In this document: piece after piece, positions 16,671 to 30,928 of the stretch
Position numbering within the stretch: the stretch's first letter is position 1
Layout of the letters: each line of letters begins with the position of its first letter
Source: an uncultured Gammaproteobacteria bacterium
GTDB lineage: Bacteria > Patescibacteriota > Microgenomatia > JALYQM01
DNA: 64,000 nt
Reading direction: 5' to 3'
Assembly: GCA_964403585.1 (NCBI GenBank)
Contig: CAYOFQ010000001.1
Location: 712,630-776,629 of the forward strand
Made by a program: the position numbers and the translations under genes
The notes under the pieces: generated by a model
Seen by the model: the letters and a program-made list of their open reading frames with translations, nothing else
Database searches by the model: none
Told to the model about the DNA's origin: nothing

Positions 16671-16697
16671 AAGGGGAGACAAAATCTCCCCTTTTTA
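16671..16697. terminator. Bidirectional rho-independent terminator between convergent genes
   Basis: ggggaga-caaaa-tctcccc hairpin flanked by an A-run and a T-run. Confidence 0.6.
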
Positions 16698-16961
16698 TTC
16701 CTCTGAATCTTTGGAGGTATCTGCTTCATTGACGACTGGCTTGGGAGTTGCTGCTACGCCGGAGTCTTTTTTATACATTTCACCTACCAGCCAGAGCACG
16801 GCTTCTTTTTTATATCGTCGATCACCGCGTTGGTTGATTCGAATAGCTTGGAGCTTTCCGCGTTTTCCCCACCGCTTAAGCGTAATTTTCGATACGCGTA
16901 AAAAGTCTGCTACTTCCTGGATTGTCATTAATTCCGGTAAATCGTCGCCAATTGAGGCCAT
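16695..16961 (-). CDS. HTH (MerR/excisionase-type) DNA-binding protein
   Basis: MTIQEVADFLRVSKITLKRWGKRGKL helix-turn-helix. The start is set at the M with RBS taaggagaattcacATG. Confidence 0.55.
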   Translation of the reverse strand: MASIGDDLPELMTIQEVADFLRVSKITLKRWGKRGKLQAIRINQRGDRRYKKEAVLWLVGEMYKKDSGVAATPKPVVNEADTSKDSEE

Positions 16962-17061
16962 GTGAATTCTCCTTAATGTAATATAACTCATGAATTCATA
17001 ACTAATATATCAAAGGTAATCAGAAGGTATCAAAAATTAAGGCACACAACAAGGGGGAATT

Positions 17062-17097
17062 TATACGAAAAGAGCCGCATCTTTCGACACGGCTCTC
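17062..17097 (-). terminator. Rho-independent terminator downstream of rplL
   Basis: On the minus strand, hairpin agagccg..cggctct followed by TTTTCG. Confidence 0.45.
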
Positions 17098-17145
17098 TAA
17101 TATTTCGGAAGACGCTTAAGCGGTTCCTCAATGATTCATTACAAA

Positions 17146-17541
17146 CTACTTAAGTTCAACTGTAGCACCAGCTTCAGTGAGTTTCTTCTTTGCTTCTTCA
17201 GCTTTCTCTTTGTTAACACCTTCGAGAACTGCTTTTGGAGCTGATTCAACAACAGCTTTAGCTTCAGCGAGTCCGAGTGAAGGAACGAGTTCGCGAACAG
17301 CTTTAATCACAGCGATTTTGTTAGCACCTGCGCCGGTGAGAACAACATTGAATTCTGTCTTCTCTTCAGCCGGAGCTGCGTCACCAGCTGCTGCCGGTGC
17401 TGCGCCTGCCATCATCATAGGAGCTGATGCTGAAACACCAAACTTCTCTTCGAGAGCATGTACTAAATCAGCGAGTTCAAGAACGGAAAGTTCTTCAACA
17501 GCTGCGATAACCTTTTCAACTTTTGCAGATACGTCTGCCAT
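17146..17541 (-). CDS. rplL: 50S ribosomal protein L7/L12
   Basis: Classic L7/L12 N-terminal dimerisation helix, Ala/Pro hinge and C-terminal domain [13 protein letters not shown]...LGLAEAK. Confidence 0.92.
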
Positions 17542-18431: not shown

Positions 18432-19061
18432 CTATTCGGAGTGGGTCCGGCGCACCAACCAGCCATAATTCCCGTGATTAGTGAGGCTATATACCGCAGT
18501 TGTTGGAGCATCAGCTAAAGCAACCCGTACAACGGGCTCGAAATAGAGTCCGTGGATCATCAGGCTTCCGGCAACTTCAACGGGCTGAGTTATTATTAGT
18601 CGCAATTGCTGTTTTGGCTGCTCGTCATCTGAAATCGCTTCAGTTAGGTGGAAATTAGGATTCACCCTAGCACGGTACTCAGTATAACTCGTAAAATGCT
18701 CTTCTATTTGACCGAGCTGATATGAAGCAAAGGTAATCCTATCCAGATTAAGTTTTCTTGTCGGAGGTTCTACGCCATTCCCTCGTATAAGCTGAGCATA
18801 CCGACTACTGATACCATCAAGTATCGCGTAACTACCGTGACCGGACTCTGCGGTACGCATTCTGAGGGCACGCTTGTATCCCCATATCCGGTCGTCATAT
18901 CTCCCGGGTAGCACGGTTATTCTCCGCAAACCGTCATCACTCTGTCTCCGTATCTGATGGACTTCCATACCGGCGTTTTTGAACAACTGCATCAATGTCG
19001 CTTGTTCAACATCCTGATTGCCGGGAAGATTTTGTACGAGGTCTAATTGAGGAGTCTCCAT
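18432..19061 (-). CDS. hypothetical protein (209 aa)
   Basis: ORF only. No family recognised. Confidence 0.4.
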   Translation of the reverse strand: METPQLDLVQNLPGNQDVEQATLMQLFKNAGMEVHQIRRQSDDGLRRITVLPGRYDDRIWGYKRALRMRTAESGHGSYAILDGISSRYAQLIRGNGVEPPTRKLNLDRITFASYQLGQIEEHFTSYTEYRARVNPNFHLTEAISDDEQPKQQLRLIITQPVEVAGSLMIHGLYFEPVVRVALADAPTTAVYSLTNHGNYGWLVRRTHSE

Positions 19062-20221: not shown

Positions 20222-20674
20222 ATGGAACAGGAATTAATCGTAACCCCTAAGCCTCGCGAAAAAAGAAAAGCCATCGAACTCCTGAGCGATGAAGAGATAC
20301 ATGATTTCCGCCAAAATGTTTTCGACGCGTTAAAGCAGAAATTAGAGCAATTTAGCATCCAAGACGATATGGAAGAGCATTACCGTAAGACAAACTGGGA
20401 AAGTAAAGACCGCGCCATACTCGGCATCAGTGATAAAACAGGTAAAAACAACATCGATTTATTCTTCACGGCTCTTAAAGAAGAAAATGAGTTAACTTCT
20501 TTCTGCTTATCTGTCATCGATCGAAAATCACAACGAAAAGACCGGATCGCTTTTTTCAAGGGTTCACACGTCATAGTTATCGAAAGCGAAAATGAACACA
20601 ATATCTCTCCTTTGGATACACTGAAAAAAGATGAGTTTGAAGACGTGATAAATCTGATAAAAGATTATAAATAG
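20222..20674 (+). CDS. hypothetical protein (150 aa)
   Basis: ORF only. Confidence 0.35.
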   Translation: MEQELIVTPKPREKRKAIELLSDEEIHDFRQNVFDALKQKLEQFSIQDDMEEHYRKTNWESKDRAILGISDKTGKNNIDLFFTALKEENELTSFCLSVIDRKSQRKDRIAFFKGSHVIVIESENEHNISPLDTLKKDEFEDVINLIKDYK

Positions 20675-20686
20675 ATAGTAGCTAAA

Positions 20687-23404
20687 CTACTTCTTTTTTC
20701 TCTTTTTATATTCTACAACTCCATTGAGGTCATCTTCGATAATTTCTGTATACGTTTTCATCCAGGTTTCAAATTGTTCGCCATCGATAATTCGCTTTGC
20801 TTTCTTATGGAGCAGCTCGTTCATAATTTCTGTTAAACTTTCCGGACCTTCAATTTCATATTTCTTTAACCCGATCCGGTACGTGTCTTTGGTGCCTAAT
20901 CGCTTAAGTGTTCTAAATGCTTTTTGCAACTCACGGTCGTAATCGGCCAAAGTGGCTTCTGCCCGACAGTAAAGAGACCATGTCTGGATGAGCGGTTCAA
21001 TCGCATTGTAATATTTATCGGTTAGCTTATTTGATTCTTCCACCCCTATACGTTCACTAGGGAACTGTCGAATATTATAAATAAACTCATGCCATAATGT
21101 TGGAACATCTGCAGGTTCAAGTCTGACTCTAAACACCTGATATTTTCCGTCGGGATGATCGGTAATACCTACCACTCCAAGGTTATCGACCATTTTATGA
21201 ATATCGAAATTATCTACTGTCTGGTTACGGGGGCGGGCAGTATCAAAACCTAAAGAGACGAGGTCTTCCATTTTTTCGCGAACCTCACTTTCTGCTATAG
21301 AAGTTGGACATACTGAAACCATTCCTCCGGACTGAGCAATCAGATTGACTGCTCTTTGAAAAGTACGTGCTGGTTTTTCTACCAACCGCTCAGTTGTCAT
21401 TCCAAGTGGAGCTGTGTATAACGCGGTCATAGCCAGTCCACGTCGTGCACGATCAAGCTCTCCGGATGTCTCTCGAATATATCGTTCGTAATATTCTTTA
21501 CCGAACAAATTTGAGTGAAGTAGGGGCAACATCGCAATCACCACCGATTGCAAATTATCATCACGTATATCGGCAGGTTTCCAAAGCGCTTCCCTGGCAT
21601 TGACCAGTAACTGAAAGTCGGTTGTATTATTGGCCATCGCGAGAACTTGTGCCATTACCACCGACTCATTAAATTTATACCGACGTTTTGTCAATTTAGG
21701 AACACCGCCCTCAGGATCCTCTTCGATCTCATCGCGATCAAAGTAAACGCGCGGTATTTCCAAATGCAAATATTCTGTCGCAACTGCCTCCATCAACGGG
21801 TAGTGGCGTGGCGGCAGTTTCTCTTTAGGCGGCAAACCGTTTTGTCGGCGAACTTCAGCATAATCGTGTTCGCCATTAAGAATCTTAGGAAAAGGGGCAA
21901 TGCGTATCGGCTCTTTGGCGTACTGTGCAACGTAATCACGAATTCCTAATGCAGTGTCGACCACATACGGTAGAACTGGTGCACCGTTCCAACGATGATT
22001 AACTTTAAAGTGCACATCGGCGTTCACGGCATTGAAAGTCAGGCACCAATCCGCGTCCGCAGTGTTCCCTAAGGACTGGGGGTCGTGGGTATTCCAGGCT
22101 GACAAATCTTCGTTATCAAAATACTGAGGAAAATGGTGATCGGGAGGCTCCGAGCGGTGATAATTTACTATGTACTGCGGCTTGTTGCGATAAAAAGCAG
22201 CATATAATGGTTGGTCCTTACGGTCATTTGAATAACATTGCCGGTGCAATGCCGCCCGCTGTACTCCGTCGATTTTAAGAAAATGAAATGGTTTAACGCG
22301 AACGAAATCATATATACGATTCATGATTTCCTCTCTGCGTACATCAGGATCTCCAATTTTAAGGAGGCTCTCTACATCGGTGGAGAAGTCAGCACGATAC
22401 TCCTCATCGAGTAAAATGGTCATCCGAAAGCTCTTTTTTGCGTCTTCAAATTCTGCCCGGTCTTTTTCATCTAAATTCGGTTGAGCACTTTGAGCTTCAA
22501 TATAGCGAAGATGATGGTCTATGTGCGCATGGATCAACCCTGCAGTTACTGCTGGAGCTTCTGTTTTTAACATCATCCATTGGTCTTTATCGTGATATCT
22601 AAAACTCCATCGGTATTTAGCAGATTCGGTATCTAACCGTCGGTCAACCTCTTTGCGTAATTCGAACCAGCGGCTTAAATCGTCCAGCCAACCGGCACGC
22701 ATCCCGGCCGAAAAGTTCAGAATGGCAACGTTAACAAAACTGAACGGTTCGCTCGCGCCAGAGCAGAATTCAAGATATTTACGAGCTGCTACACGGCTCG
22801 CTTTGACATCTTCAACAAACTCTTTGGTGTAGTAAAACGGTTTGTTTTCTGACTCAGTGGTATAAAACCACGATACCCCCTCTCGAAGATGTGCATACAA
22901 CACTTTAAGCATCGCAGCTTTGTCCTGCGCCGAAGCTTGACTCGAATAGCTCTCATCAGAAGTAACCGTGTCTATCAATTTTTCATAAGTACTGATAGCC
23001 TCTCCCGGCGAAGTAGCCATATCCAGATGATCAATAGCTTCGACAATGCTTTGTTTTATTTCCGGACGGAGTGCTTCATACGCTAATGCTGTCTGCTGAA
23101 CATTGAGCTGACTTGTGTCCTTCAGCATTTCGGCAATAACGCGCTGGTGCTCAACAACTTGCTGAATACGCTGCGAGGTTGTTTCAAGATCTGTTTCATT
23201 GATGATAGAGGCATCCTTCAACTGTTTAAGGTGCAGGAGCGCCGACCCCCTGATAGTATCAATACTGTGCGAGTCCCGTGCATTTATTAACAAAGTTGCA
23301 CTTAACCATTCAACTTGTTTAGAAGGCGAAAGACCATCCGGTACCTCACCCCGTTTTGCTTCCTGTGCGATCACATCAATTGGCTGTGCTTCAGAATCTG
23401 ACAT
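20687..23404 (-). CDS. large hypothetical protein (905 aa), ORFan
   Basis: Long uninterrupted ORF with native codon usage. No recognisable domain. Confidence 0.55.
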   Translation of the reverse strand: MSDSEAQPIDVIAQEAKRGEVPDGLSPSKQVEWLSATLLINARDSHSIDTIRGSALLHLKQLKDASIINETDLETTSQRIQQVVEHQRVIAEMLKDTSQLNVQQTALAYEALRPEIKQSIVEAIDHLDMATSPGEAISTYEKLIDTVTSDESYSSQASAQDKAAMLKVLYAHLREGVSWFYTTESENKPFYYTKEFVEDVKASRVAARKYLEFCSGASEPFSFVNVAILNFSAGMRAGWLDDLSRWFELRKEVDRRLDTESAKYRWSFRYHDKDQWMMLKTEAPAVTAGLIHAHIDHHLRYIEAQSAQPNLDEKDRAEFEDAKKSFRMTILLDEEYRADFSTDVESLLKIGDPDVRREEIMNRIYDFVRVKPFHFLKIDGVQRAALHRQCYSNDRKDQPLYAAFYRNKPQYIVNYHRSEPPDHHFPQYFDNEDLSAWNTHDPQSLGNTADADWCLTFNAVNADVHFKVNHRWNGAPVLPYVVDTALGIRDYVAQYAKEPIRIAPFPKILNGEHDYAEVRRQNGLPPKEKLPPRHYPLMEAVATEYLHLEIPRVYFDRDEIEEDPEGGVPKLTKRRYKFNESVVMAQVLAMANNTTDFQLLVNAREALWKPADIRDDNLQSVVIAMLPLLHSNLFGKEYYERYIRETSGELDRARRGLAMTALYTAPLGMTTERLVEKPARTFQRAVNLIAQSGGMVSVCPTSIAESEVREKMEDLVSLGFDTARPRNQTVDNFDIHKMVDNLGVVGITDHPDGKYQVFRVRLEPADVPTLWHEFIYNIRQFPSERIGVEESNKLTDKYYNAIEPLIQTWSLYCRAEATLADYDRELQKAFRTLKRLGTKDTYRIGLKKYEIEGPESLTEIMNELLHKKAKRIIDGEQFETWMKTYTEIIEDDLNGVVEYKKRKKK

Positions 23405-23452
23405 ACTAATTCAATAATGTTATTATATAAAGCAAGAGAACAAATAATCCAT

Positions 23453-23806
23453 ATGGCACTCAATCAATATTACGGCAATGCAATCTGGACCAACCACGCG
23501 CTTGAGCGTATTGGCCAGCGCGGGCTCACACAGGAACTCGTCTGGAAAGCCTTTAACATGCCGGAAAAATCACTTCAGGGTAAAAATCCGGGAACTATGG
23601 AATACCAGCGGACGTTCGGTAAATCTGTAGTCACCGTTATTGCTAAACAGAATGAGAAGCGGGAATGGTTAATTCTTTCCTGCTGGATCGACCCGCCGCT
23701 GCCCGGTTCAATCGATATTAAAAAGCGGGAAGAGTGGAAGAAATACAAAAAAGCTGGTTTCTGGGGTAAATTTTGGTTGACTTTAAGAAAGCAACTCGGG
23801 TTATAA
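23453..23806 (+). CDS. DUF4258-like small protein (HAxER motif; toxin-like domain)
   Basis: WTNHALERIGQRGLTQELVWKAF...VVTVI fits the DUF4258 HAxxR pattern. The start is set at the internal M. Confidence 0.45.
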   Translation: MALNQYYGNAIWTNHALERIGQRGLTQELVWKAFNMPEKSLQGKNPGTMEYQRTFGKSVVTVIAKQNEKREWLILSCWIDPPLPGSIDIKKREEWKKYKKAGFWGKFWLTLRKQLGL

Positions 23807-23813
23807 TGAGTGC

Positions 23814-26297
23814 ATGTCTATCCCAGAATACGGCACTCCTGACATTCGCAAAGAAGCCGAACGCAAGTACGGCAATATCGAAGCTAATCAGAAAGATACA
23901 CTTCGACAAGAATTCTCCTCAATGCTGGAGAAGGTTGACCGCGAAGATCTTCGTCAAACAGTCCTTTGGGACATTCAACATAATGCTGAAGATATCAGCC
24001 GAATGTTACAAAAACTCAACAAATATAAACTTAAAAACGGTGAATCCCATCCACTTGACCTGTGTCTGGTATTGCTTACCGCCGCCGGAGCCGACATGGA
24101 CGGGTTAGAAATACAAAAGAAGGAGCCAGATCCAAGTGAAAAAGTTACCAGCATCGAAGTTCCATTTAAAAATGAGCTATTAAAAATCGAAAATGTTTGG
24201 CAATCGGTAAGAAGATCGCGCGAAAAAGTATTTGATGAATACGGGAATTCTGTGCAGAGAGAGTATCTTATAACTGAGTTTAAATTAAGCGACTGTATTC
24301 GTATCGACACACAGGATAAAAACTTAAGCTCACGGGAGGAATTTTTAGCCAGGGCAATGACGCAATATTTACAGATGCGCTATCAGTGGGACAGCAATAT
24401 CTTTCAGGATAAGAAGTACCAGGTAATTAAGGAATTAAACGATGATGAAACCAAACTTGTAGACAGCGTTTTTGATGAGTTGGATATTAGCAAAAAAGAG
24501 CAGTACAGCTTCGAGGGACTGTCTAAAAAGAATATCGAGAAAAGAGTTGTATTCAATAAGAGTTTGTTCTGGAATAAAGGGCATTCTTCCGAAAGGCGAC
24601 GATATTCCAGTCTCGACAATGTCGTACTTTCTTTAGGTATCGGGCAAATGCTGACACGCGATTCAGTCGTTGTTAACGGGCACCACGGTTGGTGCGGTGA
24701 CCCGGAGGCGATGATGGGGATAGTAGCTCAGACGATGTACAAAGCCAACCGGGCCCTTGCTGCGCAGGAGGGGAGGGGTAAGTATACCAGTGTGGTAGGC
24801 ATTACAGCCGAAAATCTGGGTATAGTCCCAATTCCTGAGGAGAAGCAACTACATAAACGGTTCATGGAAAAATTAAAGCGCCGATTTGGGAAAATTCAAA
24901 ACCCAAACTTGTCGGAAGGTTTTTTCAAAGAATTTCGTTACGCAGAGACTTCCGAGAGGGCTGCTTTTGATCCTGAGACATACGGTCGTGACATGGAGTG
25001 GACAGCCAATCATATTTTCGGATTACTTGGCCAAAAAGATGGAGAAGGGCCTAAAAACTTATGGATCGGGTGGTCGTATGGTGGTGCCGGCGCAGAAGAA
25101 TTCGCAGCACGAATTTTGTCCCGTGTTGAAGATAACTGGATGGATCAAGCTCCAAAACTCTATGCAACTCTCGGTGCAGAGTATCAACGCTGTATTGACC
25201 TTATTAATGATGACAAGTCGACACCCGACCTGCTTAAGCGAACAGCAGTACTGTATCCTGTGTTACGGAAACTGCATCAGGTACTTCAGGATCCGCATTT
25301 GCCCGAGTTCAAAGACTGGCAACATGTCGGTGCTCCTGATCTCATAGTCTTACCACATGCTTCGGCGGTTAATGACACCTGTGATTTTTTAGGGCCAGGG
25401 CGACTGGATGCTTTCCTGAAGAAGTTCGGCGAATTTTCCGCGAGTGCGGGCTCAGGATTTTTGGTAGGCACGGGAACCGGGTTGCATCGTGTTCGGGCGA
25501 CAGGCTTAGCCCCAGTCCGTTGGGCCTTAGAAGGTATTGCCGGTGTCTACACTAAAATGATTCTTTATACAGGCACAATCCAGCCCGAGGAACGGGAAGA
25601 GCTTGATCGCATTGGAAAACGCCACAAAGTAAACTATTCTTCACCAATTAACGGACAGGATGTCGTCGGTGAACAATCCCGGGGATTGCGCCTTTATAAA
25701 GGGAAATCTGAGGAGGCCTCACGATTACTCCGCACTCATCAGCTATTCGTTATGCATGCCATGGGCTATGGTGATTTTTTGGTTAACTTTAAAAAATGGT
25801 CCAATTCTCAAGCCAATTCCGACACTGATATGCTAACCACAGTCGACGATTTCGGTCACAGTATTGTTGCTAAAAAAGAACATAAGGAACGGATGCCGAT
25901 AGACATGTATATTGAAGCTTCAAAGACACAGTTATACGCCTTCCGCGAGAAAATGAAACAATTGGCGGGATTAAACATAGGATTTTCACCGGGAAGAGAC
26001 TTTATTAACGCTGAGGAAACGGATTTATTCGGGCGTTTTGTTGAGAGTAACTGGGATTTGACCCTACGTCATCTCGACGAGCCTACGGTCTTGGCGCGTA
26101 AAGAAATCTATGAGGATGTCGATAAGATCTTTATTAATGATCCGCAGTTGGGCCTTCGGGCGATGCAAGTATTAGAAGAACATGAACCCCACCTGTTTAT
26201 GCCCCGACCATTAAAGCCAACCGATAACCGTGGAGCACTCATGCGTCTGGAAAACATCAGGAGCAAAATTGCCGCTTCGCTATTAAGTGTGATTTAA
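23814..26297 (+). CDS. large hypothetical protein (827 aa), ORFan
   Basis: Long ORF that starts 8 nt after the DUF4258 gene. No recognisable domain. Confidence 0.55.
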   Translation: MSIPEYGTPDIRKEAERKYGNIEANQKDTLRQEFSSMLEKVDREDLRQTVLWDIQHNAEDISRMLQKLNKYKLKNGESHPLDLCLVLLTAAGADMDGLEIQKKEPDPSEKVTSIEVPFKNELLKIENVWQSVRRSREKVFDEYGNSVQREYLITEFKLSDCIRIDTQDKNLSSREEFLARAMTQYLQMRYQWDSNIFQDKKYQVIKELNDDETKLVDSVFDELDISKKEQYSFEGLSKKNIEKRVVFNKSLFWNKGHSSERRRYSSLDNVVLSLGIGQMLTRDSVVVNGHHGWCGDPEAMMGIVAQTMYKANRALAAQEGRGKYTSVVGITAENLGIVPIPEEKQLHKRFMEKLKRRFGKIQNPNLSEGFFKEFRYAETSERAAFDPETYGRDMEWTANHIFGLLGQKDGEGPKNLWIGWSYGGAGAEEFAARILSRVEDNWMDQAPKLYATLGAEYQRCIDLINDDKSTPDLLKRTAVLYPVLRKLHQVLQDPHLPEFKDWQHVGAPDLIVLPHASAVNDTCDFLGPGRLDAFLKKFGEFSASAGSGFLVGTGTGLHRVRATGLAPVRWALEGIAGVYTKMILYTGTIQPEEREELDRIGKRHKVNYSSPINGQDVVGEQSRGLRLYKGKSEEASRLLRTHQLFVMHAMGYGDFLVNFKKWSNSQANSDTDMLTTVDDFGHSIVAKKEHKERMPIDMYIEASKTQLYAFREKMKQLAGLNIGFSPGRDFINAEETDLFGRFVESNWDLTLRHLDEPTVLARKEIYEDVDKIFINDPQLGLRAMQVLEEHEPHLFMPRPLKPTDNRGALMRLENIRSKIAASLLSVI

Positions 26298-26344: not shown

Positions 26345-28630
26345 TTGTATATGGAAAAATTACTTGTCTGGTTTCATGAAGTTGGTAAAAACGATGTTGG
26401 TTTAGTTGGCGGAAAAGGTGCTAACTTAGGCGAAATGACTCAGGCAGGGATACCGGTTCCTCCCGGATTTATTGTCACCGCTGAGAGCTGGTACCAGTTC
26501 ATTGACGAAACCGGCCTGCGCAAAGAGATTAAATCGCATTTGCAGGGGCTTGATGTCGGCGACTCAAAAAAACTCCAGAAAGTATCCGAAGAAATTAAGT
26601 GGTTAATTACTTCAACCAAAACACCAAAGTATCTTGAAGATAAAATTAAAGAGTATTATCGCCAGTTGTCCAACGGCACGAATATGTTAGTGGCAGTACG
26701 CTCATCAGCCACTGCCGAAGATCTTCCCGATGCCTCATTTGCCGGGCAACAGGCAACGTTTCTAAATATCCGCGGCGAAGAGGAAGTAGTACGAACCGTC
26801 AAGAAATGTTGGGCATCGTTGTTTGAAGCACGCGCAATTTTTTATCGTACCGAACAGAAATTCGACCACTTTAAAGTCGGCATTGCCGTACCGATACAAA
26901 AAATGGTCCAGTCCGATGTCTCCGGTATCATGTTCTCAATTAATCCGGTAACCAATGATAAAAATACCATTATTATCGAAGCAATTTACGGTCTTGGTGA
27001 ATACATTGTCGGTGGTAACGTTAATCCGGATCACTATGAAGTCGACAAGAAAACGCTCTCAATCAAAGATAAAATTATTGTTCCGCAGACACACAAATTA
27101 GTCAAAATGGGTGACGGTGGCAATGATGACCAGCCGGTGCCCGAAGAATGGCAGAACATTCAGAAGTTGTGGGATGAATCTATCCCGCCACTGGCCGAAC
27201 TCTCCCGCAAACTCGAGGAACACTATGGCAAGCCACAGGACAGCGAATGGGCTGTCGAAAAGGGACAGATCTTTATCGTCCAAACACGACCGATTACAAC
27301 CGTTAAAGCAGTCGAAAAAGTAAACGCAGCTTCGGTTAGTGCCGACACCCAGGCCGTTTTGAATACTCCGGCTATTGTTACCGGGGCGGCTGCTTCGCCC
27401 GGTGTCGCTGCCGGACCGGTCGTTGTTATTCATTCACCAAACGACATTGATCAGGTAAAGCAAGGTGATGTACTCGTAACTGAAATGACCACTCCGGATT
27501 TCGTGCCGGCTATGAAGCGCGCCGCGGCGATTGTTACTGATCTCGGCGGCAGAACCTGTCATGCGGCCATTGTTTCCCGTGAATTGGGAATCCCGTGCGT
27601 AGTTGGTACCAACAATGCAACACAGGTACTCAAATCCGGCCAGATGATCACCGTCAATGGTTCAGGTGGAACCGTCCATCAGGGCGGTGTTGCCCATATG
27701 AGCGACCAGAAAGCCAAATCCGAGCAGGAAGAGCACGAAGCCGAGCGACTAAACACACATACGAAAGTATATGTGAACTTAGCCGAACCGGAACTGGCTT
27801 CAGAAATAGCTGCAAAGCATGTTGATGGTGTTGGCTTATTGCGCGCTGAATTCATGATTGCCGGAATTGGTGTCCATCCGAAAAAACTTCTTAAGGAAGG
27901 CCGTGGTCAGGAATTTACCGACAAATTAGCTGAAGGCTTAAAACAGTTCTGTGAAGCGTTCGATCCACGACCAATTATCTACCGCGCCACCGATTTTAAA
28001 ACCAACGAGTACCGTTCATTAGAAGGCGGTGCCGAATTCGAACCGGAAGAACCAAATCCGATGCTCGGGTATCGAGGTTGCTTCCGCTATATCAACGATC
28101 CCGAGGTCTTCCGGCTTGAAGTGGAAGCGATCAAAAAAGTCCGCAACGAATACGGGTTTAAAAATCTTCACTTGATGATTCCGTTTGTCCGGACAGTTGA
28201 TGAATTAGTTAAAGTTAAGCACATCTTAAATGAGTTTGGACTTCGCCGCTCTTCAACCTTTAAACTGTTAATGATGGTCGAGATACCTTCAAACGTTTTA
28301 TTGCTCGATGAGTTCCTCGATGTTGGCGTCGATGGTGTTTCTATTGGTTCGAACGATCTGACCATGCTTATTCTGGGTACCGACCGTGATAACAACGAAG
28401 TCGCCGGCGAGTTTGATGAGCGAAACGAAGCAGTGATGTTAGCACTGGAACATATCGTCAAAACTTGCAAGAAACATCATGTCATTTGCGGTATTTGCGG
28501 CCAGGCGCCTTCCGTATATCCGGAGATTACTGAGAAATTGGTGGAATGGGGAATTACCTCAGTATCCGTATCTCCAGATATGATTGGGCATACCCGGAAA
28601 ATTGTCAGCCAGATCGAAAAACAAAAATAG
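26345..28630 (+). CDS. ppsA: phosphoenolpyruvate synthase (pyruvate, water dikinase)
   Basis: ATP-grasp N-terminus KNDVGLVGGKGANLGEM. Phosphohistidine domain GGRTCHAAIVSRELGIPCVVG. PEP-utilising C-terminal domain. Confidence 0.85.
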   Translation: MYMEKLLVWFHEVGKNDVGLVGGKGANLGEMTQAGIPVPPGFIVTAESWYQFIDETGLRKEIKSHLQGLDVGDSKKLQKVSEEIKWLITSTKTPKYLEDKIKEYYRQLSNGTNMLVAVRSSATAEDLPDASFAGQQATFLNIRGEEEVVRTVKKCWASLFEARAIFYRTEQKFDHFKVGIAVPIQKMVQSDVSGIMFSINPVTNDKNTIIIEAIYGLGEYIVGGNVNPDHYEVDKKTLSIKDKIIVPQTHKLVKMGDGGNDDQPVPEEWQNIQKLWDESIPPLAELSRKLEEHYGKPQDSEWAVEKGQIFIVQTRPITTVKAVEKVNAASVSADTQAVLNTPAIVTGAAASPGVAAGPVVVIHSPNDIDQVKQGDVLVTEMTTPDFVPAMKRAAAIVTDLGGRTCHAAIVSRELGIPCVVGTNNATQVLKSGQMITVNGSGGTVHQGGVAHMSDQKAKSEQEEHEAERLNTHTKVYVNLAEPELASEIAAKHVDGVGLLRAEFMIAGIGVHPKKLLKEGRGQEFTDKLAEGLKQFCEAFDPRPIIYRATDFKTNEYRSLEGGAEFEPEEPNPMLGYRGCFRYINDPEVFRLEVEAIKKVRNEYGFKNLHLMIPFVRTVDELVKVKHILNEFGLRRSSTFKLLMMVEIPSNVLLLDEFLDVGVDGVSIGSNDLTMLILGTDRDNNEVAGEFDERNEAVMLALEHIVKTCKKHHVICGICGQAPSVYPEITEKLVEWGITSVSVSPDMIGHTRKIVSQIEKQK

Positions 28631-28643
28631 AGAAAATACCTGA

Positions 28644-29717
28644 TTAGAGCGAAGCTAAGACTGCCTGGTCGGGCTGAGGAAGTGCGGTATCCGGTACTGT
28701 ACGCGCCAGATCATTAATTTTTGTCCGAACAGCTACCTTTTCGTCTGCGGTCCCGAAAGACAACTGAAAAACTTCTTCGGTCGATAGTTGGGTAACGCCT
28801 TTATACCATATCTTTGTATCGCGAATGCTTGCATCATAGTTCGAGAATACGCCTCGAAGTTCAGCTTGTACTCCCGGTGGAAACCGGTGCACATTTTTTT
28901 CGAAGCGAACCTGCTGCCCAAGGGCGAAACCGTACTGAAACTTAAATGCGTTCACCAGCGTATTTTTATGCTGGGCAAAATCCGTGTCCCGGGTCGCCAA
29001 GGAATCGTAGGTACGGTATCGGGTAAGTAATCGCCTGGTAATAAAGAAATTATCTTCGATTGCCAATTGCACGGCTGTTTCCAGCAAACTTTCAGTGCTC
29101 CCGATACCGGGATCTGCCAGGTCGGCCATGGCGGTAAGATATGTCGAATATGCCGAATCAGACTTAAGGTTAGGTTGGCGTACGGTAAACAATTTGCGTG
29201 AAGCATCCTGCTCCACCGGGTTAAGCATGGTAAATTCGGGTATTGTTGCCAGTACTGCTTCTTTTGCCAAAGCTATATGTCGCTCGGTGTAATAAACAAT
29301 GCCTTCAGGGCTATTGTTTGCCTCAGTCATCCAGTTAATAATAAGCTGAGCAGATTCTACCTCGTTATATCCTCGTCGATTGGCACCCCGAGCATCTTTT
29401 TCGACAACACTATCGTGTCCGGCGATAAATAAGCGGGAAAGAATGAGTTCATCTTCGGGGATCTGATTACCATCCGGAGCCCGTTTTATCGCCTCAATCA
29501 TTCGTCCGTTAACCATGAGTAACGCTACGGTATGATCAAGTTTATGATACTCTCGCCGGTATTCGGGTAGCGTATAGGGGTCTTTAACCGGTTGAGACTC
29601 ACCAAAATCTTTGCGGAGCTTATTTAAAAAGAAAGCAACGCCTTCCTCGGTTTTTGTTCGTAACTCTTCTTCACTTGCTTCTCTTCTCAGTGGGGTTTCG
29701 TGTTGCTCATCGCTCAT
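28644..29717 (-). CDS. hypothetical protein (357 aa), possibly HD-domain-like
   Basis: The H...HD spacing (LDHTV...FIAGHDSV) is weak evidence only. Confidence 0.4.
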   Translation of the reverse strand: MSDEQHETPLRREASEEELRTKTEEGVAFFLNKLRKDFGESQPVKDPYTLPEYRREYHKLDHTVALLMVNGRMIEAIKRAPDGNQIPEDELILSRLFIAGHDSVVEKDARGANRRGYNEVESAQLIINWMTEANNSPEGIVYYTERHIALAKEAVLATIPEFTMLNPVEQDASRKLFTVRQPNLKSDSAYSTYLTAMADLADPGIGSTESLLETAVQLAIEDNFFITRRLLTRYRTYDSLATRDTDFAQHKNTLVNAFKFQYGFALGQQVRFEKNVHRFPPGVQAELRGVFSNYDASIRDTKIWYKGVTQLSTEEVFQLSFGTADEKVAVRTKINDLARTVPDTALPQPDQAVLASL

Positions 29718-29759
29718 AAAGCAAAATAAAGTATACTATACTGATCTAATATATACACC

Positions 29760-30305
29760 ATGAAACAATTTCTCGGTCTCATTTTATTTTTGGTATGGAG
29801 CATCATCGCGCCAGCTACTAATTCATACGCTCATACGGTGCACACCAGCGGCTCTATTAGCGCTATATTACACATTGCCGCTGACGATGATCCGATTGTA
29901 GGGGAACCAACCCGCCTGATTTATACAATTAAGGATGCAAATAGAAAATTCTCAGCTGAAAAATGCGAGTGCAAAGTTGAAATCAGCACCAACGGCACGG
30001 TTATTGAAAATAAGTTGTTATCCCGCGACAATAATTCCGAACAATCACTAGATTTCACTTTTAAACAAAAAGGAATCTATACAATTACGCTAAGCGGGAG
30101 TGCCCGGGATAATTCATTTGAACAATTCCAAATCAAAAATGAAATCCGGGTCTCGCGCGAAAATGCCAATTCCTCAATTATGAACCTTATCATTGCCTAT
30201 CTACCGATATCTGCGCCAATCGCCGCCGCGGTAGCTTATACCGTAGTATTATTATTGGGTGGAAAAAAGGAATCCAAATTAAACACAGAAGGAGTTACAC
30301 CGTGA
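29760..30305 (+). CDS. secreted/membrane-anchored hypothetical protein. Mature N-terminus is predicted to start with His.
   Basis: Signal peptide ...SYA|HTVHT. C-terminal TM helix. Confidence 0.45.
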   Translation: MKQFLGLILFLVWSIIAPATNSYAHTVHTSGSISAILHIAADDDPIVGEPTRLIYTIKDANRKFSAEKCECKVEISTNGTVIENKLLSRDNNSEQSLDFTFKQKGIYTITLSGSARDNSFEQFQIKNEIRVSRENANSSIMNLIIAYLPISAPIAAAVAYTVVLLLGGKKESKLNTEGVTP

Positions 30306-30928
30306 ACCATAAAATAACCAGAAGTATTATTGCTGCAATTATCCTGATCGCAGGCTCGGTATCACCGTCATATGCACACGTTACCGTTCGGCCAAACGAA
30401 GTTGGAGTTGGTCAATTTATTACCTTTACCATGGGAGTTCCGCCCGAAAAAAAGGTTCCCACAACTGAAATACGTCTGGTAATTCCCGACGGGCTTGAGT
30501 CGATTCGGCCGTTAGTTAAACCGGGGTGGAAAATAGAAATGAAAAAAGAGAGCGACAAAGAAGACGCCCGGATAACCGAAATCCTTTGGACCGGTGGTGC
30601 GATTCCTTCCGATCAGAAAGACGAATTCTCGTTCAGTGCTAAAGCTCCGGCCAAAGCAACAACCCTGCAATGGAAGGCCTACCAGACCTATTCCGACGGT
30701 ACCATCGTTGCCTGGGATCAGCCTCCGGCGGAGTCGGAGACAGAAGCAAAAGATGAAAACAAAGGCCCGTATTCGCAGACTAAAATTATTGACGATCTGG
30801 TAACTGCTGATACTGCTAAGCCGCAAACAGCCGGGCAATCAGCCGACAAATCATTCACTCAATACATGTCTCTTGCCGCCCTGGCACTGTCGATCATCTC
30901 GTTGGCACTGGCTATCCGCAAGAAATAA
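30302..30928 (+). CDS. YcnI-like (DUF1775) copper-binding cell-surface protein
   Basis: Signal peptide ...SYA|HVTVRP with the mature N-terminal His typical of YcnI. C-terminal TM anchor. Confidence 0.55.
   Translation: MNHKITRSIIAAIILIAGSVSPSYAHVTVRPNEVGVGQFITFTMGVPPEKKVPTTEIRLVIPDGLESIRPLVKPGWKIEMKKESDKEDARITEILWTGGAIPSDQKDEFSFSAKAPAKATTLQWKAYQTYSDGTIVAWDQPPAESETEAKDENKGPYSQTKIIDDLVTADTAKPQTAGQSADKSFTQYMSLAALALSIISLALAIRKK

Follow-up and report, generated by a model that had tools for sequence, protein, structure and literature searches.

A 64,000-nucleotide (nt) stretch of bacterial DNA, referred to here as the window, was examined at positions 20687-26297, where a small gene, S (117 amino acids, aa), lies between two divergently oriented giant open reading frames (ORFs), A (905 aa) and B (827 aa). 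Comparison with related genomes indicated that the interval flanking S is probably not one functional unit and that the giants are swappable neighbors of S; this judgment covers the whole account given below, in which S is domesticated, the genes beside it occupy variable slots, B is a hydrolase, and A is a functional protein. A first-pass annotation of this DNA had described two giant ORFs of 905 and 827 aa, divergent around a 117-aa gene, and their coordinates were confirmed in the ORF list. It had further proposed that the small gene encodes a toxin coupled to a giant as a delivery/effector or addiction unit. That part was not supported, as S resembles a core gene, has no conserved partner, and sits beside giants that can be swapped. 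In the text, L numbers designate related loci or contigs and P numbers designate homologous proteins.

The large genes beside S vary among related genomes

Gene maps and BLAST comparisons revealed a backbone with the order rplL, rplJ, a fast-evolving protein of ~210 aa, a YhaM-like protein (340 aa), slot 1, S, slot 2, and a pyruvate phosphate dikinase (PPDK, 758 aa). This backbone was common to only eight genomes or contigs, a small sample, and the contents of the two slots differed among them (Table 1).

Table 1. Contents of the two slots beside S in the eight genomes or contigs that share the backbone.
Genome or contig	Slot 1	Slot 2
Window	A (minus strand) and an orphan 150-aa ORF	B
L001	A-like, 960 aa (minus strand)	B-like, 862 aa
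Sample SRR25018341 (L002, L059)	A-like, 876 aa, on a separate contig	B-like, 896 aa, 1 nt after S
L004	Family C, 760 aa, same strand as S	664-aa protein passing the Pfam Abhydrolase_6 threshold
L005	Family C, 752 aa	Empty
L060	Family C, 691 aa	B-like, inverted (convergent with S)
L064	Family C, 734 aa	B-like, inverted (convergent with S)
L006	Empty	Empty

In L006, the YhaM-like gene ended 1 nt before S, and PPDK started 43 nt after it. The four family C proteins were mutually homologous (21-68% identity). Profile-profile comparison detected no relatedness among A, B, and C, and remote homology between them was rejected at probabilities below 1%. The 664-aa protein of L004 may or may not be a diverged B; only the nucleophile elbow aligned, at a probability of 1.3%.

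Beyond the backbone, no gene was found to accompany S generally across 56 loci. The possibility, raised in the first-pass annotation, of an overlooked immunity or antitoxin partner found no support, as the window has no room for one and none of the 56 loci revealed a conserved neighbor. The commonest neighbor was TruB, which was located directly upstream in 14 of the 56 loci and was immediately adjacent to S in 8 of these. TruB (3e-29) and RNase H (1e-17) recurred near S, as did MsrA, SOD, and others. In Levyibacteriota-type genomes (L009, L014, L015, L016, and others), truB immediately preceded S (intergenic distance, -4 to 24 nt) and RNase H was nearby, an arrangement that suggests an RNA-related role for S.

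Relatives of B and S were also found apart. In the metagenome-assembled genome (MAG) RI947, a B relative (RI947_665) and an S homolog (RI947_545) were separated by ~120 locus tags. In two other loci, S was followed by giant proteins of surface type (L034, 10408-16661; L043, 10410-16683). The neighbors in L034 were a beta-helix and dockerin protein of 914 aa and an FG-GAP and dockerin protein of 1155 aa, and the giant surface-type proteins of these two loci had a C-terminal half in common that was 57-62% identical.

Core genes and giants diverge at different rates

Percent identity to the window protein was compiled for six related loci (Table 2).

Table 2. Percent identity of backbone proteins and of B to their counterparts in the window.
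Protein	L001	L004	L005	L006	L060	L064
L12	96	93	98	-	84	-
L10	86	85	90	76	60	-
YhaM-like	82	82	82	69	57	58
PPDK	92	91	93	83	72	72
S	74	80	77	70	60	62
B	46	no match	absent	absent	25	22

Identity was bimodal, with core genes at 62-98% and A, B, and the ~210-aa neighbor at 23-46%. In the closest genomes, core proteins were 82-98% identical to those of the window, B was 46% identical to its nearest relative, and A was 23-38% identical to its own. The L001 counterpart of A stood at 23%, and the ~210-aa protein stood at 25-27% across L001, L004, and L005. S diverged in step with L10 and the YhaM-like protein across related loci. When all shared genes were compared, the same bimodality was seen, together with many presence/absence differences across the whole region; accessory-gene turnover between conserved genes is general in these genomes and not special to the flanks of S.

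Two further places in the region had variable content. In the window, the protein between rplJ and the YhaM-like gene (18432-19061, minus strand) is 209 aa long and had no family match; its flanks are 82-90% identical versus 25-27% for the protein itself, which places it in the fast-evolving class. A third variable slot lay between PPDK and a P-type ATPase gene (window, 28644-30928; L004, 14701-17561; L005, 12700-12729). In the window, it was occupied by a fast-evolving protein of 357 aa, one of 181 aa in which a signal peptide is apparent, and a DUF1775 protein; it held two unrelated proteins (519 and 438 aa) in L004 and was empty in L005.

On contig L059, the partial S was closer to the window protein (59/68 residues, 87%) than was the S of L001 (53/68, 78%), whereas the B of L059 was 27% identical to the window B versus 46% for the B of L001, which is incongruent with S on the same contig. 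This incongruence (L059 1-2899 compared with window 23600-26297) possibly reflects recombination or episodic acceleration, the S fragment being short (68 aa). A phage or mobile origin of A, B, and S was considered and rejected: none of the three had relatives on viral contigs, A and B did not deviate in guanine-plus-cytosine (GC) content, and neither flanking repeats nor an adjacent tRNA was found at the locus. The slots themselves lacked integrase, tRNA, repeat, and GC signatures.

S appears to be a domesticated DUF4258/BECR-type protein

DUF4258 (PF14076) is a BECR-fold family among the RelE/ParE-superfamily toxins of type II toxin-antitoxin systems, in which the antitoxin gene precedes the toxin gene (PMC11980606). 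It was later re-placed in a colicin-like branch, overlapping Ntox49 (bioRxiv 10.64898/2026.08.28.747851). S aligned to positions 1-67 of the 71 positions of the DUF4258 model and scored 18.2-18.5 bits (E about 0.003), under the Pfam gathering cutoff of 25 bits. Nearly all of its close relatives (29 of 30, at 56-80% identity) matched DUF4258, with a best E-value of 1.3e-5; 6 of the 30 also matched PBECR3, and two relatives (P0017 and P0045) bear a precomputed PF14076 annotation. Because the relatives match the family while S itself falls under the threshold, the assignment was made at the superfamily level, where S is accepted by transitivity as a predicted homolog of DUF4258/BECR proteins. At that level, the DUF4258-type call of the first-pass annotation stands.

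An alignment of 30 S sequences revealed invariant residues W12, T13, H15, A16, R19, R23, and Q27 and an invariant block, W78-x-D80-P81-P82-x-x-G85. The helix motif H-A-x-x-R-x-x-x-R is present in S with H15, A16, R19, and R23 all invariant, and the HAxER motif that had been pointed out earlier reads NHALER. The segments WTNHAxxRxxxRG and WIDPPLPG were invariant, and the protein, which is basic (pI 9.9), ends in a basic C-terminal tail (AGFWGKFWLTLRKQLGL).

Homologs of S formed 237 protein clusters, and the best 120 listed were 57-80% identical and 113-134 aa long. Their source MAGs carry labels such as Patescibacteria, Levyibacteriota, Daviesbacteria, Roizmanbacteria, and Woesebacteria, and a pattern scan with one genome per species placed S in 55 species genomes or loci. 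S was free-standing in all 237 homologous clusters and never formed the C-terminal tip of a large secreted protein. No second copy was found in the window, and S was not found on viral contigs. Its conservation is at the level of a housekeeping gene, and its gene order is maintained within lineages. Apparently, this DUF4258/BECR-type protein has been domesticated and now stands alone in the core genome of a Microgenomates-type lineage of the candidate phyla radiation (CPR).

B is a candidate serine hydrolase or acyltransferase

A word-indexed search of 5.8 billion proteins returned, for each giant, the protein itself plus one homolog, which for B was P0002 (46% identity). An exhaustive HMMER search with a B profile against 1.84 billion cluster representatives retrieved eight proteins in all, so that B has seven detectable homologs. 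A, as described below, has two. Both giants evolve very fast, and their earlier description as lineage-restricted ORFans was borne out. Full-length B had no meaningful match in Pfam, NCBIfam, PADLOC, PHROG, or the PDB; its hits, such as DUF1539 (E = 0.014), were at chance level only.

The eight family sequences were 18-47% identical to B and had only 17 invariant columns. Eight of these columns comprise the residues HG, WSxGG, D, and H in the canonical order of alpha/beta-hydrolases, taken here as the oxyanion HG after strand 3, the nucleophile elbow, the acid, and the histidine. In B, the invariant residues are H291-G292, W420-S421-x-G423-G424, D654 (with L656), and H682; position 419 is G in seven of the eight sequences and C in one. 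Their local contexts are typical of the fold (VVVNGHHGWxGD, hhGITADNMGI, LWIGWSYGGAGA, GxxDxLV, and a GH ~28 residues past the Asp), and the low-confidence AlphaFold secondary structure placed a strand at 415-419, then Ser421, and a helix at 425-464. The first-pass annotation had seen no recognizable motifs in either giant, which is correct for A and incorrect for B.

The family alignment was trimmed to columns occupied in at least seven of the eight sequences (residues 278-700), a criterion independent of any knowledge of hydrolases. When the trimmed cores were compared with Pfam, Abhydrolase_6 was the top match for two of the eight, below threshold (E = 0.026 and 0.078). Against the PDB, the trimmed core profile matched best to 4x00_A, a putative hydrolase (E = 0.008), in two collinear stretches that covered the elbow (VGWSLGGAV) and paired D654 and H682 with GAQDALV...DSGHAPF. 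Nine of the 11 PDB matches listed were alpha/beta-hydrolases aligned at their own nucleophile elbow, and they included BioH, pimeloyl-ACP methyl ester esterase, PHB depolymerase, dienelactone hydrolases, and PETase. On this evidence, B is quite likely to be a giant enzyme of the alpha/beta-hydrolase fold, either a serine hydrolase or an acyltransferase.

B also has a conserved N-terminal domain (residues ~40-280) and a C-terminal extension. Hydropathy analysis predicted neither a membrane segment nor a signal peptide in B, and its N-terminus is acidic; B is predicted to be cytoplasmic unless exported by an unrecognized route. The most remote of the B relatives (P0129 and P0130, each at E about 2.5e-4) are encoded 1-2 nt downstream of a GT2 glycosyltransferase gene in clusters that hold PMT_2, MurJ, GT2, epimerase, Polysacc_synt, and LytR_cpsA_psr. 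This glycan and cell-envelope operon context is a weak hint of an envelope-glycan substrate. Two more unannotated proteins, of 845-889 aa, head the glycan cluster of these distant relatives (L061, 425-5645; L067, 1-4080); neither matched Pfam, and BLAST showed no similarity of either to A, B, or C.

A is an orphan giant with conserved blocks

Only two homologs of A were detected, P0004 (38% identity) and the 960-aa protein of L001 (23% over the C-terminal 316 aa). No further relatives appeared in two metagenome scans and one viral scan. A had no match in Pfam, NCBIfam, PDB, PADLOC, or PHROG, and an A profile likewise had no match in the PDB. The AlphaFold2 model, built from a two-sequence alignment, was unusable (pLDDT 41), and a Foldseek search with it was meaningless. 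Across three lineages, A is intact at 876-960 aa and retains the blocks DYQLLVxAxExLWKP and GLAxTALYTAPLG. Because the ORF is intact, its length is conserved, and conserved blocks are present, A is predicted to be a functional protein.

The segment HAHIDH (residues 292-297) was considered as a metallo-beta-lactamase HxHxDH motif and rejected: D296 is not conserved in P0004, the histidines are missing in the L001 protein, and the segment is predicted to be helical. No conserved catalytic-type motif was found among A and its relatives. Hydropathy predicted no membrane segment or signal peptide in A. The earlier proposal that the giants are surface factors was not upheld, as neither A nor B has a hydropathic membrane segment and their N-termini are acidic or polar. 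No housekeeping homolog of A or B emerged from the searches, and the link of S to DUF4258 held.

Layout of the locus

The features of the locus and its borders are compiled in Table 3.

Table 3. Features of the locus, with window coordinates.
Feature	Coordinates	Strand	Basis or remark
YhaM-like 3'-5' exoribonuclease, 340 aa	19179..20201	+	OB fold and HD domain; left edge of slot 1
150-aa ORF in slot 1	20222..20674	+	Orphan, low GC, reality uncertain
A, 905 aa	20687..23404	-	ORF list; slot 1, divergent from S
Promoter-like site for S: CTGACA, 17 nt, TATTAT, with TG before the second hexamer	23398..23426	+	Overlaps the 5' end of A
S, 117 aa, DUF4258/BECR-type	23453..23806	+	Profile matches and homolog starts
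B, 827 aa	23814..26297	+	ORF list; slot 2
Proposed hydrolase core of B, residues 278-700	24645..25913	+	Alignment of eight family members and trimmed profile
Predicted oxyanion HG of B	24684-24689	+	Alignment residues; nucleotide coordinates computed from them
Predicted nucleophile elbow of B, GWSYGG	25068-25085 (Ser421, 25074-25076)	+	Alignment
Asp654 of B	25773-25775	+	Alignment
His682 of B	25857-25859	+	Alignment
Phosphoenolpyruvate (PEP) synthase/PPDK family protein, 761 aa as listed	26345..28630	+	Right edge of slot 2

The small ORF was listed as 23417-23806 (129 aa). Its true start is the second ATG, at 23453, because every homolog begins there. The homologs of PPDK begin at the ATG at 26351. 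The YhaM-like protein matched Pfam HD (6e-15) along with an OB fold, and it matched the NCBIfam model YhaM (NF010007) across its full length at E = 3.9e-48, with a score under the equivalog cutoff. PPDK matched Pfam PPDK_N (5e-112), PEP-utilizers, and PEP-utilizers_C.

The start codons of A and B are 409 nt apart, in agreement with the divergent gap of about 400 nt described earlier, and the truly non-coding part of the spacer between A and S measures 48 nt. The start of B follows the stop of S by 7 nt, and no plus-strand terminator-like site was found between them. Because of this short gap and the missing terminator, S and B are probably co-transcribed in this genome, as the first-pass annotation had also supposed. 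The promoter-like site upstream of S matches the consensus at 10 of 12 positions, is the best plus-strand site in the region, and overlaps the upstream ATG of the small ORF; the total count of such sites across the region was not above chance, which makes this one weak evidence. An Rfam scan of the window found only four tRNAs, all far from the locus.

The 150-aa ORF that separates the YhaM-like gene from the 3' end of A may be recent or spurious. It has no homolog in any related locus compared and is missing in L001, where the YhaM-like and A-like genes abut. Its GC content is 0.38 versus ~0.45 in the adjoining genes, and its sole PHROG match was weak (E = 0.011). On comparison with family C, it was rejected as a leftover of a displaced C gene.

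At window positions 16695-17541, rplJ and rplL are followed by a small HTH_17/MerR-type gene and then by plus-strand sugar-phosphate mutase genes, with no rpoB or rpoC. The usual bacterial arrangement is rplKAJL-rpoBC, from which the window order differs. The same helix-turn-helix and sugar-phosphate mutase order after rplL was seen in L001 and L060. Between the helix-turn-helix gene and rplL, L001 (2174-3035) and L004 (3728-4625) have a Peptidase_M78 (ImmA/IrrE-type) gene and a small ORF with no counterpart in the window. A and B map to a single NCBI contig of 1,573,555 bp, which is large for a Patescibacteria genome. Many related MAG records are titled 'uncultured Gammaproteobacteria', an evident mislabel given their gene content and relatives.

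Proposed history of the locus and alternatives

From gene positions, distributions, identities, and invariant residues, we infer an RNA-directed role for S, a hydrolase activity for B, and an order of replacement events. S would act on a specific cellular RNA, or bind RNA, and would not be a growth-arresting toxin, because it is basic, keeps the invariant His/Arg helix, and usually shows tight co-oriented spacing with the YhaM-like, TruB, and RNase H genes near rplJ and rplL. In the slots beside it, large fast-evolving accessory genes without secretion signals would be gained, lost, inverted, and replaced. The ancestral operon of the clade was probably YhaM-like, C, and S, with a C of ~700 aa co-directional with S, as a 4-nt overlap of C with the start of S in L004 and L060 suggests. 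In the sub-lineage of the window, C would have been replaced by A on the opposite strand, cutting S off from the upstream operon, which would explain the separate promoter-like site of S that lies within the 5' end of A.

B would be the older occupant of slot 2, inherited in place and diverged very fast; one branch would have inverted it, two would have lost it, and in L004 it would have been replaced or have diverged past recognition. It would use Ser421, Asp654, His682, and the oxyanion HG at 291-292, and most likely would cleave or transfer an ester-linked acyl group, with its additional parts (~280 N-terminal residues, ~130 C-terminal residues, and long internal insertions) probably giving substrate targeting. 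Co-transcription of S and B in this genome follows from their position and is not read as conserved functional coupling.

Several points weigh against this account. The AlphaFold2 model of B, built from a two-sequence alignment, was unusable (mean pLDDT 34), so the fold itself was not seen; a Foldseek search with it, meaningless at that confidence, gave no match with E <= 0.001. Full-length B-family profiles matched nothing significantly in the PDB or Pfam, which we attribute to the long insertions (130 residues from HG to Ser and 233 from Ser to Asp), and the E-value of 0.008 for 4x00_A depends on trimming insertions by alignment occupancy, so that support for the hydrolase assignment is marginal. 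Hydropathy is a crude test of secretion. The proposed RNA role of S is drawn solely from fold-family membership and neighborhood, and no activity is known for any DUF4258 protein (PMC11980606). At the level of the locus, S has at least one large neighbor in seven of the eight backbone genomes or contigs, and C overlaps its start in two of them.

These last two observations would also be expected if the large flanking proteins (C or A, and B) worked with S in a clade-specific module, for example an RNA- or envelope-directed machine with fast-evolving large subunits. The C-S overlap suggests translational coupling, and B keeps the same slot even when inverted. Such a module is nevertheless rather unlikely: L006 lacks both giants and L005 lacks B, A and C, encoded on opposite strands, are not related to each other, S has a far wider distribution than A, B, and C and has unrelated neighbors elsewhere, and the B relative and S homolog of RI947 are unlinked. 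The same distribution bears on the coupling of S, as a toxin, to a giant, either as an effector/delivery pair with the giant as carrier or surface factor or as toxin-antitoxin addiction. The S family is classed with type II toxin-antitoxin toxins and overlaps the polymorphic-toxin domain Ntox49, and S and B are tightly spaced in the window and L001 (7 nt in both) and in L059. Yet there is no antitoxin-sized gene beside S and no room for one, a partner is conserved in none of the 56 loci, and S stands alone in L006. B is inverted in L060 and L064, absent from L005, and unlinked in RI947; in L004, L005, L060, and L064, the place of A is taken by an unrelated family on the other strand. S is housekeeping-like and syntenic, unlike mobile toxin-antitoxin modules, and is a free-standing protein of 117 aa, and neither a signal peptide nor a membrane segment is predicted in A or B. 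Toxin coupling is thus very improbable and appears already largely refuted by distribution.

A, B, and C could instead be host-interaction effectors or anti-phage proteins under diversifying selection, exchanged by recombination at a fixed site in a hot-spot of conflict genes. Their divergence is extreme relative to the flanking core, and presence/absence, inversion, and replacement occur among close relatives; the incongruence of S and B on L059 fits as well, and hydrolase effectors are common in conflict systems. A Gabija-like pair lies ~5 kb from the S locus in L005 (15673-18811; an AAA_15/OLD-TOPRIM ATPase of 574 aa followed by a UvrD-type helicase of 474 aa) and is absent from the window. 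Against this, A, S, and B had no PADLOC or PHROG match (nor did their counterparts in PADLOC), viral copies, mobile-element repeats, GC anomalies, and secretion signals were lacking, accessory turnover is general across the region and not slot-specific, and B seems to have been passed on vertically within its slot across a deep split (PPDK 72% identical). We regard a hot-spot of this kind as unlikely. That the giants are decaying or spurious frames, functionless under relaxed constraint, is hardly credible. They are extremely rare and fast-diverging, and AlphaFold confidence was poor, but uninterrupted ORFs of 725-960 aa are kept in every lineage, the catalytic-type residues of B are invariant across 18-47% identity, and A has conserved blocks. 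The reading that we prefer remains a conserved, solitary S between two slots whose large occupants are swappable.

Implications

A toxin-type DUF4258/BECR domain apparently has been domesticated into a stand-alone core gene of a large CPR lineage, beside RNA-processing genes, and a non-toxic conserved DUF4258 member would be a convenient entry point to the activity of the family. As an extremely rare family of giant alpha/beta-hydrolases, B would offer a testable enzymatic handle on one 'dark' large CPR protein. The locus also shows that adjacency can mislead: the pattern of a toxin next to a giant ORFan dissolves across ~60 related loci, which calls for caution when effector or addiction functions are annotated in uncultured bacteria.

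A more far-reaching interpretation, which we consider improbable, is that the locus represents a fixed-site diversity cassette, of a type as yet undescribed in CPR bacteria. S, as an essential domesticated BECR-type RNA enzyme, would then anchor two slots of non-secreted giant effectors, and A, C, and B, the last a new family of giant serine hydrolases, would be replaced and diversified by recombination under host or phage pressure. Wedging between indispensable genes would protect such a cassette from loss.

Comparison with known systems

S resembles the DUF4258 toxins in spanning nearly the whole domain model and in keeping the H-x3-R-x3-R helix. It differs from them in its own score, which is under the Pfam threshold, in the extra invariant WIDPPLPG segment and basic C-terminal tail, in not being fused to a large secreted protein, in its housekeeping-like conservation and synteny with RNA-metabolism genes, and in lacking an upstream antitoxin, unlike the antitoxin-toxin order of the family (PMC11980606). 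Compared with type II toxin-antitoxin modules, S has no adjacent antitoxin (only 48 nt separate it from the gene upstream and 7 nt from the gene downstream) and is not patchy or mobile, being syntenic and diverging like L10 and the YhaM-like protein. Compared with polymorphic toxins of the Ntox49 type, S stands free, and the gene downstream is variable or absent, with no constant immunity gene.

Variable gene slots or genomic islets between core genes, such as defense or effector hot-spots, are known. As in these, the core flanks here are fixed, and the contents differ in presence, orientation, and family among close relatives; unlike them, the locus has no integrase, tRNA, repeat, or GC signatures and no known defense or phage families, and B appears to be vertically inherited in place. 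Giant lineage-specific proteins of CPR and other ultra-small bacteria are usually surface or host-interaction proteins. A and B are similarly large, lineage-restricted, and unannotated, and the S neighbors in L034 are truly of surface type, whereas A and B have no signal peptide, membrane segment, repeat, or adhesin domains.

Relative to known alpha/beta-hydrolases, B is much longer (827 aa versus about 260-300 aa), has a large conserved N-terminal domain, reaches no curated model at threshold, and belongs to a family with eight members in 1.84 billion representatives. The distance from HG to Ser is 130 residues, compared with about 65-70 residues as the usual spacing in these enzymes, and ~230 residues separate Ser from Asp. 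B nevertheless keeps the order and local context of the putative catalytic residues seen in Abhydrolase_6/Abhydrolase_1 proteins, in the GWSxGG elbow of BioH-like enzymes, and in 4x00_A; its Asp follows a hydrophobic strand, the GH comes ~28 residues later, and its best profile matches are esterases that align through their own catalytic sites. Set beside these systems, what remains is not categorically new: a very rare family of giant proteins predicted to be alpha/beta-hydrolases, an orphan giant A, and a conserved solitary gene of BECR type.

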